Shown here: piece after piece, positions 34,098-56,815 of the stretch | Layout: each line of letters begins with the position of its first letter | Position numbering within the stretch: position 1 is the stretch's first letter | NCBI RefSeq assembly: GCF_013122565.1 | Contig: NZ_CP053258.1 | Source of the DNA: Escherichia coli | GTDB taxonomy: Bacteria > Pseudomonadota > Gammaproteobacteria > Enterobacterales > Enterobacteriaceae | DNA length: 64,000 bases | Direction: 5' to 3' (one strand) | Made by a program: the position numbers and the translations under genes | The notes under the pieces: model-generated | Databases searched by the model: none | What the model was told of the DNA's origin: nothing | Seen by the model: the letters and a program-made list of their open reading frames with translations, nothing else

Positions 34098-34279
<182 letters not shown>

Positions 34280-34347
34280 CCCTCCAATCTCAACTGTTCA
34301 AATTTCGAACTACACTTAACTGGCTTCTCTTAACTGAGGTCATCATC

Positions 34348-34782
34348 ATGCCGTTAAGTCCCTACCTCTCTTTTGCCGGTAACTGTTCCGACGCGATTGC
34401 CTATTATCAACGTACGTTGGGCGCGGAACTGCTCTATAAAATCAGCTTCGGCGAAATGCCAAAATCAGCGCAGGACAGCGCCGAGAACTGCCCTTCCGGA
34501 ATGCAATTTCCCGATACCGCCATCGCTCATGCCAACGTGCGCATTGCCGGAAGCGACATCATGATGAGCGATGCTATACCGTCAGGAAAAGCTAGCTACT
34601 CCGGCTTTACGCTGGTGCTCGATTCGCAACAGGTCGAAGAAGGAAAACGCTGGTTTGATAACCTTGCCGCTAACGGAAAAATCGAAATGGCCTGGCAGGA
34701 AACTTTCTGGGCGCATGGCTTCGGCAAAGTCACCGATAAATTTGGCGTACCGTGGATGATTAATGTCGTTAAACAACAATAA
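34348..34782 (+). CDS. phnB: PhnB-like glyoxalase/bleomycin-resistance fold protein
   Basis: ORF 34249..34782 runs through the BIME; start placed at MPLSPYLSF (GAGG ribosome-binding site upstream), about 144 aa. Confidence 0.75.
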   Translation: MPLSPYLSFAGNCSDAIAYYQRTLGAELLYKISFGEMPKSAQDSAENCPSGMQFPDTAIAHANVRIAGSDIMMSDAIPSGKASYSGFTLVLDSQQVEEGKRWFDNLAANGKIEMAWQETFWAHGFGKVTDKFGVPWMINVVKQQ

Positions 34783-34832
34783 TAGCTACCTGCTGCGCCC
34801 ACTGGCGTTAATTCCCAAAAAGGAGAAATACC

Positions 34833-35267
34833 ATGCCTGCTTGTGAGCTTCGACCGGCCACGCAGTACGACACCGACGCGGTTTACGCACTGATTTGTGA
34901 GCTAAAACAGGCGGAGTTTGACCACCACGCGTTTCGCGTGGGCTTTAACGCCAACCTGCGCGACCCAAACATGCGCTACCATCTGGCGCTGCTGGATGGC
35001 GAAGTTGTCGGCATGATCGGCCTGCATTTGCAGTTTCATCTGCATCATGTCAACTGGATCGGCGAAATTCAGGAACTGGTGGTGATGCCGCAGGCACGCG
35101 GTTTGAACGTTGGTAGCAAGTTGCTGGCGTGGGCGGAAGAGGAAGCCCGTCAGGCCGGGGCCGAAATGACCGAGCTTTCTACCAACGTGAAGCGCCACGA
35201 CGCGCACCGTTTTTATCTGCGCGAAGGCTATGAGCAGAGCCATTTCCGTTTCACTAAGGCGCTGTAA
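34833..35267 (+). CDS. phnO: GNAT-family N-acetyltransferase, PhnO-like
   Basis: 144 aa; acetyl-CoA binding motif (Q/R-x-x-G-x-G/A pattern: [11 protein letters not shown]); recognised as PhnO-like from sequence and from its position after phnB and before yjdP. Confidence 0.55.
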
Positions 35268-35279
35268 GATGAGCCTACC

Positions 35280-35609
35280 TCATCGCCCATACTCATCTTC
35301 CATTCTCCGCTCTTCATCTTCTAGCTGCCGACGCTCCTGATCAAGCTGGCGCTGGCGATCGTCCAGTTGCCTGCGGCGATCTTCAAACTGGCGGCGGCGA
35401 TCGTCATATTGTCTGCGACGATCGTCGCTCACTTCACGCTGCCAGCTGTCGTCGCGCGAATCTTCATAGTCTCGCCCACGGTCAGGGTTATAAGCGTCGT
35501 TAATCGCCTGCTGAATATTGCCAATGGTGTCGTCGATAATATCGGCCTGGGCCGGAACGGTGGACAGCGTGAGCAGGGTGAAAAGAAAGAGCGTGGAGTG
35601 GTGTTTCAT
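35280..35609 (-). CDS. yjdP: Small secreted low-complexity protein YjdP
   Basis: 109 aa; N-terminal signal peptide, then an Arg/Asp/Gln/Glu-rich repetitive tail. Confidence 0.7.
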   Translation of the reverse strand: MKHHSTLFLFTLLTLSTVPAQADIIDDTIGNIQQAINDAYNPDRGRDYEDSRDDSWQREVSDDRRRQYDDRRRQFEDRRRQLDDRQRQLDQERRQLEDEERRMEDEYGR

Positions 35610-35677
35610 AAACTCAGCCTCGCAACAAAGTTAATACAAGGTAGGCAAAGGTACCTGTCGCGAGTAGCGGAGGATTC

Positions 35678-37939
35678 TCAATTCTCTTGCCCCAGAACCT
35701 GCGCCAGCTGCGCGCGGGTAAAAGGTTTGCGCAACAGCGCTACGTCTGGCAGCGCGGGGTTATGGCTGGGGCGTAAATCCTGGCCGCTGATGAGTAGCAG
35801 CGTCAGATGCGGGTAAAGTTCGCGGGCCGCATTGACCACTTCTGCGCCGCTCATGCCGCCTGGGAGCATTAAATCGCTGATAAAAATATCGATTTCCGCT
35901 GATGCCGCCAGCAGGTCCAGCGCCTGTTCGCCGCTGCTCGCTTCCAGCGTCAAATAGCCCAGCAGGTGTAACTGCTCGCAGATGGTCTGGCGCACCGCGG
36001 CTTCATCTTCCAGCACGAGCACCAGTTTATCGCCGCTGACGGCTGTCTGTTCTACCGCCGCTGGCGATAGGTTTTTCGCCGCCGTCAGCGCGCGGGGAAG
36101 CTGTAATCTGACCGTTGTCCCCTGCCCCGGCGCGCTTTCAATTTCTACACGCCCACCGGACTGGCGCACAAAACCATAGACCATCGACAAGCCCAGCCCG
36201 CTGCCACTCCCCGTCTGTTTGGTGGTAAAGAACGGCTCAAAGACCTGGCTTTTCACCGCCTGCGACATACCGCTGCCATGATCGATGACCTCCAGCGCCA
36301 CCATGTCCTGACGCTGCCCACTGCTGCGGGTAACGCGCTGATTCCAGGTACGAATTTTGATAATTCCCGTCAGCCCTTCCATCGCATCGCGGGCGTTCAT
36401 CACCAGATTGATGATGGCATTTTCCAGCTGGCTGACATCAATCCACGCGGGCCATGCCGGAGACTGCGCTTCAATCTCAATCGTCAGCGTCGCCGGTAAG
36501 GAGTGGCGCATTAATTCGCTTAACTCTTCCAGCAGTGTTTTTAGCTCAACGGCTTGCGGATGTAAGGACTGCTTGCGGGAAAACGCCAGTAGTCGCTGGG
36601 TCAGTAGCGCGCCACGTTCGGCAGCTTGCTGCGCCCGCTGTATTCGCGGCGCGTCGGGTGAGTCCGTGTTCACCAGTTCCAGGCTGCCAATAATTACCGC
36701 CAACAGATTATTAAAATCATGGGCCAGCCCACCCGTCAATTGCCCAACCGCTTTCAGTTTCTGGCTGTGTAATAGCGCCTCTTCCAGCCCCTGCCTCTCG
36801 GTTTGGGCAATCTCCATCTGCGTGGTTTTCTCTTTCAACAGCCTTGACGTTCGTTCGAGTGACGCGGTATTGCGGGCAAAAACGTTAAAGGCGCGCGCCA
36901 GTTCACCCAACTCATCGCGCCGCTGTAACGCCGGAAAAGTGACGTCCGCTTCGCCGTGCGCCAGGCGGCTCATAGCGCGGGAAATCGCCGTCAGGTTAGA
37001 GCCGAGATTGCGATAGATATACCAACCTGCAAATGCGGTGATCACCACCGCTAACAGAGCGAAAATCATGATCACCCTCTCGCCGGAGCGCAAATCCTGG
37101 TAACTTTGCGCCACCCGCTGACCGGAGAGCATCGCCACCTGTTCGGCGTAACGGTTGATGTCGCCATTAAGGATCGCCACCAGCGCTTTGATGTGAAACA
37201 TATACCAGCTGATTGCCAGATCGCTTTGCTCCAGAGCGGCAGAAAGCGGCGCGAGTTTACGCAGTTCATCATTGAAATCATTGAGTAGCGTATTAACCAA
37301 TGGCGTATCGCTGTGGGTCGGCAACGCAGACATTACCCCGACCAGTTGATGAATAATCGCCTGCGGCGCGGGGGTGGCAATAGCGGCAACAATCAGTCGG
37401 TTCATCTCGTTAAGCAAAATATCATCTTGCGCATTAGTGACTTTTTGCAGATGCCGCAGATAACTTAAGTTTTGATACAGCGAACTTAACAGCGCGTTGC
37501 GCTCCAGATGTCGCCTTTGCCCGCGCTCCAACATTCCGCCGACGCTGGTTTGCAGTTCGTTGCTACGCGTGATGATGCGCGCCACCAGCCCGGCCTCCTG
37601 CTGCGCTAACGGCGCGTTCGCCAGTTGTGCAAGCGAGCTTTTTAATGCCCGCTGTGTCTCCTGCAATCGCTCGGCTTCGCCTTTATATTCCAGCGCTCCC
37701 ACCACTTGTGACAATCGCACCGCCGCCGTCGCCACATTTGCCGTGTCGCGCGCCAGATTCAGGCTGCCGGTCATATCATCCACCGTTTGCTGCTGTACCA
37801 GCTCCTGCATCTGGCTGGCATGACGAAAGCCCATTACCGCCACGCCGCTGACCATCAGCGTCACCGCTACCACCAGCAAATTCAAAAGCAGCAATCGCCC
37901 GCGCGCGCTGGCAAAAAAGTGACGTCCGGGGTGCGCCAT
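35678..37939 (-). CDS. Hybrid sensor histidine kinase with periplasmic domain and C-terminal receiver
   Basis: ORF 35678..38035; start placed at the in-frame ATG (MAHPGRHFF) with a GGAG ribosome-binding site, about 753 aa; TM1, ~280 aa periplasmic domain, TM2, HAMP, H-box (GGLAHDFNNLL), ATPase domain, receiver domain (LVLVLEDE...ISDLMLPGGMSG); no HPt domain seen. Confidence 0.8.
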   Translation of the reverse strand: MAHPGRHFFASARGRLLLLNLLVVAVTLMVSGVAVMGFRHASQMQELVQQQTVDDMTGSLNLARDTANVATAAVRLSQVVGALEYKGEAERLQETQRALKSSLAQLANAPLAQQEAGLVARIITRSNELQTSVGGMLERGQRRHLERNALLSSLYQNLSYLRHLQKVTNAQDDILLNEMNRLIVAAIATPAPQAIIHQLVGVMSALPTHSDTPLVNTLLNDFNDELRKLAPLSAALEQSDLAISWYMFHIKALVAILNGDINRYAEQVAMLSGQRVAQSYQDLRSGERVIMIFALLAVVITAFAGWYIYRNLGSNLTAISRAMSRLAHGEADVTFPALQRRDELGELARAFNVFARNTASLERTSRLLKEKTTQMEIAQTERQGLEEALLHSQKLKAVGQLTGGLAHDFNNLLAVIIGSLELVNTDSPDAPRIQRAQQAAERGALLTQRLLAFSRKQSLHPQAVELKTLLEELSELMRHSLPATLTIEIEAQSPAWPAWIDVSQLENAIINLVMNARDAMEGLTGIIKIRTWNQRVTRSSGQRQDMVALEVIDHGSGMSQAVKSQVFEPFFTTKQTGSGSGLGLSMVYGFVRQSGGRVEIESAPGQGTTVRLQLPRALTAAKNLSPAAVEQTAVSGDKLVLVLEDEAAVRQTICEQLHLLGYLTLEASSGEQALDLLAASAEIDIFISDLMLPGGMSGAEVVNAARELYPHLTLLLISGQDLRPSHNPALPDVALLRKPFTRAQLAQVLGQEN

Positions 37940-38052
37940 ATCACGCTCCGTGAAGAAAAATCGCAATATGACAAATATGAACGGCTTCTGACATTTTGCA
38001 TTTACTTTCCTGTGATGGAGTGCTGATATCGACAACCTCGCAGGAGTCCACC

Positions 38053-55271: not shown

Positions 55272-56539
<1,268 letters not shown>

Positions 56540-56568
56540 CAACAGCGCCTGACGGCGCTGTATCTGGC

Positions 56569-56815
<247 letters not shown>

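Follow-up and report, generated by a model that had tools for sequence, protein, structure and literature searches.

The gene yjdP of Escherichia coli encodes a short, repetitive protein and lies between a remnant of the phn operon and an accessory island, which raises the question of whether its repeats have shaped the locus. In the original prediction, the repeats were considered prone to slippage and the gene a plausible recombination hotspot. The locus was followed up here in a stretch of 64,000 nucleotides (contig NZ_CP053258.1 of assembly GCF_013122565.1), referred to as the window. The identity of the gene, the layout and conservation of its repeats, the rarity of copy-number change and the positions of the junctions are matters of direct observation. 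The hotspot view is already largely refuted, and the repeats are not the breakpoints. It is probable that yjdP encodes a Sec-exported periplasmic protein with a rod-like helix of constrained repeats, that it is transcribed from a predicted RcsB promoter and that it forms a stable landmark between variable flanks.

The coding sequence occupies positions 35280..35609 on the minus strand (109 codons and a TGA stop), as established from the list of open reading frames, the match to family NF041443 and the yjdP annotation in matching E. coli genomes. The 109-aa translation is exactly the sequence quoted in the original prediction. A profile search with the NCBIfam equivalog NF041443 gave 148.5 bits (cutoff 90, E=5.5e-44), with residues 1-103 of YjdP aligned to positions 1-101 of 101, the full length of the profile. 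This score, together with the annotation of the matching genomes, bears out the earlier naming of the gene as yjdP. The NCBI name for the family is "DDRRRQL repeat protein YjdP", and homologues carry PF28054:YjdP in precomputed annotation. An older Pfam set, which contains no YjdP model, gave no match above threshold for the open reading frame (best E=0.03). Weak NCBIfam matches to FlbB, HlyD, ESAT-6 and others were rejected as artefacts of charged-helix composition, as were the source names ‘Skp chaperone’ and ‘colicin uptake’ found on homologues.

The YjdP family is small and restricted to the Enterobacteriaceae (52 clusters at E up to 0.001). The window protein has the arrangement of the family, a signal peptide with cleavage between AQA and D followed by seven DDRRRQL-type heptad units, and its gene lies beside the phn/yjdM locus in the order yjdM-yjdN-phnO-yjdP. 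This neighbourhood is seen in six genera. YjdP of E. coli K-12 (b4487) is the same gene with an identical repeat array, and the mature proteins differ at one residue, S55 in the window against G55 in K-12. In contrast, signal-peptide residues 3-7 and the sequence between the promoter elements are those of the haplotype linked to the OI167 island, not those of the K-12 (rpiB) haplotype. Searches of the literature on b4487, and on yjdP in connection with Rcs, found no functional study and no published phenotype.

The first 22 codons (35544..35609, minus strand) encode a signal peptide, MKHHSTLFLFTLLTLSTVPAQA, which is followed by D; the cleavage between AQA and D is predicted from the sequence and the -3/-1 rule. 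The peptide has a basic n-region, a 14-residue hydrophobic core and A-x-A at -3/-1, with no lipobox Cys, and by the von Heijne rule it is predicted to be a Sec/signal peptidase I signal peptide. Residues A22 D23 I24 I25 D26 are invariant in the protein alignment. YjdP would be a small Sec-exported protein of the periplasm, with 87 residues left after cleavage. The earlier description of the product as secreted is upheld for predicted export to the periplasm, but not beyond that.

Codons 23-61 (35427..35543, minus strand) form a non-repetitive mature N-terminal region, delimited by alignments, hydrophobic moment and AlphaFold2. These first 39 mature residues consist of an amphipathic helix, DIIDDTIGNIQQAINDAY, and an acidic linker, and they are conserved in all genera compared. 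The hydrophobic moment of the amphipathic helix is 1.91, compared to 0.74 +/- 0.37 in shuffled sequences. In the AlphaFold2 model, a low-confidence helix spans residues 18-40 and is followed by coil at residues 41-53.

The heptad array follows in codons 62-109 (35283..35426, minus strand) and comprises seven 21-bp units, recognised by the unit layout, periodicity statistics, Tandem Repeats Finder and AlphaFold2. In order and in frame, the units read DDRRRQY, DDRRRQF, EDRRRQL, DDRQRQL, DQERRQL, EDEERRM and EDEYGR, the last ending at the stop codon. Protein identity at lag 7 is 0.63, against 0.19 +/- 0.06 in shuffles, and DNA identity at lag 21 is likewise 0.63, against 0.34 +/- 0.04 in codon shuffles; in both tests, none of 20,000 shuffles reached the observed value. 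DNA identity is also 0.63 at lag 42, and only 0.46 at lag 24. Tandem Repeats Finder reported a period of 21 (3.5 copies, 76% matches, 35354-35426) and one of 42. A general repeat search over 35200-35700 did not detect the degenerate heptad array and yielded nothing but short families of two copies. The mature protein contains 20 R, 19 D, 10 Q and 9 E among its 87 residues. Both the layout and this composition agree with the earlier account of a signal peptide followed by repeats rich in Arg, Asp, Gln and Glu. The same account requires correction on two points: the period is 21 bp (7 codons) and not about 24 bp, and the product is not almost entirely repetitive, as the array takes up just 48 of the 87 mature residues, those at the C-terminal end.

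The number of units was found to be stable. Standard units 1-3 are present in 5380 of 5426 complete E. coli genomes (63-nt probe, coverage at least 80%) and standard units 4-7 in 5403 (84-nt probe). About 23 genomes carry yjdP but differ in units 1-3. The junction of the commonest 102-aa allele occurs in about 16 complete E. coli genomes; there were 173 apparent matches, of which 157 were rejected as a 109-aa allele with an RKQYN signature. In a length survey of the best 120 protein clusters, 65 are of 109 aa, 24 of 102 aa, and two each of 116 aa and 123 aa. Seven different events, at different positions, were distinguished in the variant sequences, each adding or removing 7 or 14 residues in frame, namely four kinds of single-unit deletion, two single-unit duplications and one two-unit duplication, the latter in E. 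albertii. Six of the seven events lie within units 1-4, the part of the array with the most similar DNA copies. The claim that the repeats are prone to slippage and copy-number variation is thus right in that such variants exist, but they are rare. Across genera, six full heptads and an acidic tail are found in Escherichia, Citrobacter, Buttiauxella, Entomohabitans and one Klebsiella metagenome-assembled genome, while Cronobacter has seven full heptads.

The repeats of the window and of K-12 differ at six synonymous and no non-synonymous sites. In the comparison with Citrobacter, the repeats have a dN of 0.049 and saturated synonymous sites; the corresponding dN values are 0.139 for the N-terminal domain and 0.29 for the signal peptide. 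By these comparisons, the repeats are the most constrained part of YjdP, and the array is ancient and selectively maintained, not a dynamic tract. Slippage would be rare because synonymous changes have made the DNA copies diverge from one another. Selection would keep both the sequence and the number of the heptad units, and the conserved number suggests that the length of the helix is under selection.

Simple-sequence contingency loci of bacterial pathogens are tandem coding repeats which gain or lose units. The yjdP array shares with them tandem in-frame coding repeats and an occasional gain or loss of a unit. It differs in that its units are degenerate (unit-to-unit identity 0.63) and individually conserved and their number is stable, with no frequent copy-number change among close relatives (5380 and 5403 of 5426 genomes standard).

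The gene order in the window is yjdM, yjdN, phnO, yjdP (convergent with phnO), a histidine kinase gene and an OI167-type sugar-utilisation island which extends to yjcS. The only phn operon gene kept is phnO (34833..35267, plus strand), encoding a GNAT acetyltransferase (Pfam Acetyltransf_1, E=4.6e-19; annotated in strains VE-T9 and C9). The 12-bp spacer between the convergent stop codons of phnO and yjdP (35268..35279) is the phn-side junction by strain alignments, and no terminator was found between these two genes. On the other side, the first gene of the island (35678..37948, minus strand) encodes a hybrid histidine kinase/response regulator (Pfam HAMP, HisKA, HATPase_c and Response_reg). 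The 5′ end of this gene was placed by means of the 756-aa O157 homologue, and the encoded kinase is collinear with the O157 kinase beside yjdP. The location of OI167 between yjcS and yjdP has been reported (PMC10128022). As in the OI167 of EHEC (lmvK/lmvR and lmu genes), the island of the window adjoins yjdP and has the same gene order; in contrast to the EHEC context, the window additionally lacks phnC-N and phnP. The junction of kinase and yjdP is common to 385 complete genomes, whereas only 10 of the 5426 also lack phnC-N and phnP. The placement of yjdP between a phn remnant (yjdM-yjdN-phnO, without phnC-N and phnP) and an OI167-type island was thus correctly described. Over the segment from adiC to proP, the window is 99.2% identical to many genomes, and it is collinear with strain VE-T9 save for one insertion. 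Databases and the literature already document the gene, the name of its repeat and its place next to OI167, and in this respect the finding is already known.

The junctions themselves are found outside the repeats. On the phn side, the strains cease to be homologous some 9 nt beyond the yjdP stop codon. Here 55 bp of strain C9 are missing from the window, with AGGCT at either end of the missing piece. Also absent from the window is a G-rich hairpin repeat, of which O157 has one copy and K-12 two. On the island side, a conserved motif some 65 bp ahead of the yjdP start codon marks the junction. The K-12 and OI167 types differ through the intergenic region and codons 2-9 (MKRFPLFLLF against MKHHSTLFLF) and are nearly identical from about codon 10 on. 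Between K-12 and the window, the synonymous divergence falls from 0.33 in the signal peptide to 0.045 over the 39 codons that follow. The 5′ haplotype tracks the upstream neighbour across species, with the rpiB type in K-12 and E. fergusonii and the non-rpiB type in O157, the window, Citrobacter and E. albertii. This linkage fits an exchange of the upstream region by homologous recombination that ended within the conserved body of yjdP; one endpoint of the exchange would lie within the first 10 codons or so. The annotation of the collinear strain VE-T9 contains no integrase in the segment from yjdP to yjcS, and the haplotype linkage points to replacement by homologous recombination and not to integrase-mediated insertion.

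The neighbours of yjdP change from one genus to the next. The order is yjcS, yjdP and yjdN in E. albertii, with an apparent phnP 3′ remnant; rpiB, yjdP and yjdN in E. fergusonii; and kinase, yjdP and higBA-phnP in Citrobacter. Yet other genes stand beside yjdP in Cronobacter, Buttiauxella and Entomohabitans. Both flanks of yjdP are rearrangement-prone, and the common junctions are all outside the repeats. The gene and its short promoter would be a fixed anchor, beside which the flanks (phn on one side, als/rpiB or OI167 on the other) have repeatedly been lost, inserted or replaced.

The region upstream of yjdP was aligned for eight loci from six genera which have differing upstream genes or none. 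Besides isolated columns and the ATG, the only conserved blocks are TTG(A/G)GAnTnnTCCnCT and, 23 nt on, TAnnnT. The stop codon of the upstream gene, be it the kinase gene or rpiB, lies inside the conserved upstream block. Conservation and a match to the consensus identify within it an RcsB-box-like motif, TGAGAATCCTCCGC (35667..35680, minus strand), which overlaps the stop codon of the kinase gene in the window. The consensus of the RcsB box is TN(G/A)GAN4TC(T/C)NA (PMC7913699). The yjdP motif matches it at 13 of 14 positions, the last base being C and not A. All specified positions but the last are invariant in the six genera, the sole substitution being an A/G change which the consensus allows. 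The pattern match in the window is at 35669-35680; the bare core pattern is of low information and not enriched, with seven matches in the window against 18.5 expected by chance. A putative -10 hexamer, TACCTT (35638..35643, minus strand), follows 23 nt after the box, and its T, A and final T are invariant across genera. The alternative of TTGAGA as a -35 hexamer was rejected, as nothing is conserved 17 nt downstream of it. A sigma-70 consensus scan found no promoter at yjdP, which is expected for a promoter dependent on an activator but lends no positive support to one.

The layout resembles that of rprA, an RcsB-activated promoter. In rprA, the RcsB box TGAGACGAATCTGA is followed after 23 nt by the -10 sequence TACTAT, the same spacing as at yjdP, and the centre of the box lies 42.5 nt upstream of the annotated RNA start. 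Like RcsB-activated promoters of this kind, yjdP has a putative 14-nt box starting TGAGA, a putative TAnnnT -10 element after 23 nt and a box centre about 43 nt upstream of the predicted start, and it is induced together with Rcs genes; it differs in the C at the final position of the box. It has been reported from RNA-seq that an inhibitor of LolCDE raises yjdP 9.5- and 10.6-fold, along with rcsA, wca genes, ivy and osmB (PMC5105897). An RcsB-dependent promoter is predicted because of the conserved box, the rprA-like spacing and the induction by the LolCDE inhibitor. Transcription of yjdP would most likely begin about 22 nt upstream of the ATG, near position 35631, from an RcsB-activated promoter. 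The predicted RcsB-box-like motif fits the published induction of about 10-fold under envelope stress; YjdP may be a putative member of the Rcs regulon, and control by RcsB would make yjdP an envelope-stress gene. The phylogenetic footprint predicts RcsB control of an uncharacterised, predicted periplasmic protein, which provides a testable lead.

The conformation of the array was predicted with AlphaFold2 from 24 homologues. One uninterrupted helix spans residues 54-108 (pLDDT 90-97), with low confidence elsewhere in YjdP. Opposite charges in the helix form 17 pairs at i+3 and 19 at i+4, against 10.6 +/- 2.5 in shuffles, while like charges form two pairs at i+3/i+4 against about 10. This enrichment within a long predicted helix is that expected of a charged single alpha-helix. 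One hydrophobic residue is found in each unit, at every seventh position (Y, F, L, L, L, M, Y), and at 3.5 residues per turn the hydrophobic moment is 0.81 compared to 0.31 +/- 0.15 in shuffles. YjdP would have a helix of about 55 residues, the last 48 being the seven units with their hydrophobic residues on one face. As Asp/Glu and Arg are spaced from i to i+3/i+4, the helix could be held by its own salt bridges. YjdP would thus be a charged rod stabilised by salt bridges, with a single hydrophobic stripe.

Charged single alpha-helices of the ER/K type occur, for example, in myosin 10 and caldesmon. YjdP shares with them the dense opposite charges at i+3/i+4, the depletion of like pairs and the long predicted helix. 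In contrast to them, its charged and polar residues are Arg, Asp and Gln and not Glu and Lys, a hydrophobic residue recurs regularly at every seventh position, and the protein is bacterial and predicted to be periplasmic. A sequence search of the PDB found no relative of YjdP.

Four other explanations bear on this account, two of them on the gene as a whole. According to the hotspot view, the 21-bp repeats are slippage-prone and copy-variable and yjdP is a recombination hotspot which created the island and phn junctions; this is very improbable. The seven unit gains and losses, which are independent and in frame, are consistent with it, as are the structurally variable flanks in several genera and a few single-contig variants (P0012, P0026 and P0055) in which deletions by way of short direct repeats (for example GAAGATGA) have fused the 3′ portion of the array to sequence downstream. 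However, only such rare single-contig deletions enter the array. The common junctions map to a point some 9 nt beyond the stop codon, to the upstream motif and to codons 2-10, and none of them, whether of the island or of phn, falls inside codons 62-109. Neighbouring units are only 63% identical in DNA, the standard array is kept in more than 99% of complete E. coli genomes, and the unit number is the same across genera apart from the additional heptad of Cronobacter. The original prediction would have been abandoned if strains differing in island content had the same repeat number and flanking structure, and this is largely what was found: a product of 109 aa occurs with four different flank structures, those of K-12 (als/rpiB with phnP), O157 (OI167 with phnP), O104:H4 (als deleted), and C9, VE-T9 and the window (OI167, phn deleted), and the 102-aa allele occurs in an ordinary K-12-like context. 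That the open reading frame is a low-complexity artefact, or encodes a functionless disordered peptide, deserves almost no credence. The lack of a Pfam match at threshold, of a structural relative and of a published phenotype would agree with it, whereas strong purifying selection, synteny and architecture conserved in six genera, a curated NCBIfam equivalog model, a regulated transcript and a confident helix prediction all speak for a real gene. As far as evidence from sequence goes, this explanation may be taken as already refuted.

The other two explanations concern the helix and its regulation within the preferred reading of yjdP as a gene for an exported rod-like protein. The repeat helix may be a coiled-coil oligomerisation domain, a dimer or trimer like a leucine zipper or Lpp, instead of a free-standing single helix; this is rather unlikely, if the more credible of the two. 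Leucine zippers and Lpp are heptad coiled coils, and YjdP shares their strict seven-residue hydrophobic spacing, kept over six to seven turns as Y/F/L/L/L/M/Y, with a helix of about 55 residues similar in length to that of Lpp. The high hydrophobic moment also favours a coiled coil, and a tandem-dimer AlphaFold2 model, which reproduces both YjdP helices, has a pTM of 0.48, above the 0.35 of the monomer. A canonical coiled coil, however, has hydrophobic residues at both a and d. In YjdP only position 7 of the heptad is hydrophobic, and the place of the second core position, four residues later, is taken by Arg, an arrangement that would cause a clash in a parallel homodimer. The charges follow the intrahelical i+3/i+4 salt-bridge pattern, and a Foldseek search with the tandem-dimer model gave no match. 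It is also unlikely, slightly more so, that the upstream motif binds a regulator other than the RcsB homodimer, such as RcsB with a heterodimer partner, another LuxR/FixJ-type protein or CsiR, the induction under envelope stress then being indirect. The 3′ half-site of the yjdP box is imperfect (TCCGC), and the conserved block runs past the box (CTAC). A ChIP peak of CsiR at yjdP, with 3.5-fold repression, has been reported (PMC5217608), and several stress regulons respond to LolCDE inhibition (PMC5105897). Set against these points are the invariance of the box in six genera save for its last position, with only the allowed A to G change, the geometry identical to that of rprA, and the induction of yjdP together with classic Rcs genes.

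A more specific proposal would join these elements. YjdP would be a directly RcsB-activated protein of envelope stress, and its rigid charged helix, held at six to seven heptads or about 7-8 nm, would serve in the periplasm as a rod or spacer whose length is under selection. The RcsB box would in addition mark the constant border to which als/rpiB, OI167 or nothing is attached, and would supply the upstream gene with its stop codon. Taken jointly, these statements are quite unlikely all to hold. The finding as originally put matters little, since the gene, the repeat and the position beside OI167 were known and the repeats do not drive the local variation. The new elements are the predicted RcsB promoter, the conserved heptad number and a signal-peptide repeat of ST131-type strains, all of them modest.

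This last repeat, (CTGTTCACG)n, is perfect with a period of 9 bp, and it lies in the part of yjdP that encodes the signal peptide; it is carried by ST131-type strains, SE15 among them. It encodes (TLF)n and gives gene lengths of 339, 348, 357 and 366 bp, with the heptad array unchanged. The expanded form was matched in 448 of the 5426 complete E. coli genomes, and the window carries only a degenerate precursor of the tract. It is in the 9-bp (TLF)n tract and not in the heptad array that yjdP truly varies in repeat number, and the near-perfect copies of the tract are closer in kind to contingency loci than the array is. This polymorphic repeat could serve as a strain marker or affect export.

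In SE15/ST131-type E. coli, the signal-peptide region of yjdP carries an exact tandem repeat of 9 bp, (CTGTTCACG)n, which is translated as (TLF)n. This tract is found in the loci L006 (3452-3808), L021, L022 and L023. Four length classes of the ST131-type gene were recorded, of 339, 348, 357 and 366 bp, and the heptad array downstream of the signal peptide is constant throughout. The expanded (TLF)n form was matched in 448 of 5426 complete genomes. The yjdP of the window holds only the unexpanded form, FTLLTLST, encoded by a degenerate precursor of the 9-bp repeat at 35556-35582.

A possible variant of the heptad array itself was noted in one complete genome, NZ_CP178694.1, in which the 84-nt probe covering units 4-7 aligns over only 76 nt (4918900-4918975). 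The alignment suggests that 8 nt have been deleted towards the 3′ end of the array, which would therefore cause a frameshift.

Upstream of yjdP, the RcsB-box-like block of the promoter (35667-35680) contains the stop codon of the neighbouring gene. In the window this is the stop of the hybrid histidine kinase, at 35678-35680. The same arrangement is seen with the hybrid kinase in O157 and Citrobacter, and with rpiB in K-12 and E. fergusonii. The upstream cassettes of both the kinase and rpiB types share an ending in AATTGA. As the stop codons of the two genes both lie inside the conserved block, different cassettes terminate at the same base. The frame of the OI167-type kinase is unbroken across at least 756 codons in the window; the copy in strain VE-T9 (L001 22125-24384) carries a frameshift in its annotation.

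The neighbours of yjdP in other genera include a higB/higA toxin-antitoxin pair, located between yjdP and phnP in Citrobacter (L016 5486-6156). In Cronobacter dublinensis (L018 1-2894), two genes are located upstream of yjdP, one for an HSP90-like ATPase and the other of 771 aa with no Pfam match, and a phnH remnant lies downstream.

In the window, phnO and yjdP are convergent, with their stop codons 12 bp apart (35265-35285). No terminator-like hairpin was detected between the two stops, and the window lacks the G-rich hairpin repeat found between yjdP and phnP in K-12 and O157. Antisense read-through transcription between phnO and yjdP seems possible. The yjdN-phnO segment (34193-35276) has 94.0% identity to VE-T9, compared with 98.8% and 98.3% in its flanks; this local divergence would fit an import of its own by recombination. 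The ORF translations of the yjdM-yjdN interval (34100-34320), which include RLIRPT, resemble those of repetitive extragenic palindrome (REP) elements, which may be present here.

A segment of ~1.4 kb at 55312-56778 is missing in VE-T9, which is elsewhere collinear with the window. It lies between yjcO and gltP, adjoining REP-like sequence, and encodes a 326-aa IS110-family transposase (ORF 55539-56519; Pfam DEDD_Tnp_IS110 and Transposase_20).
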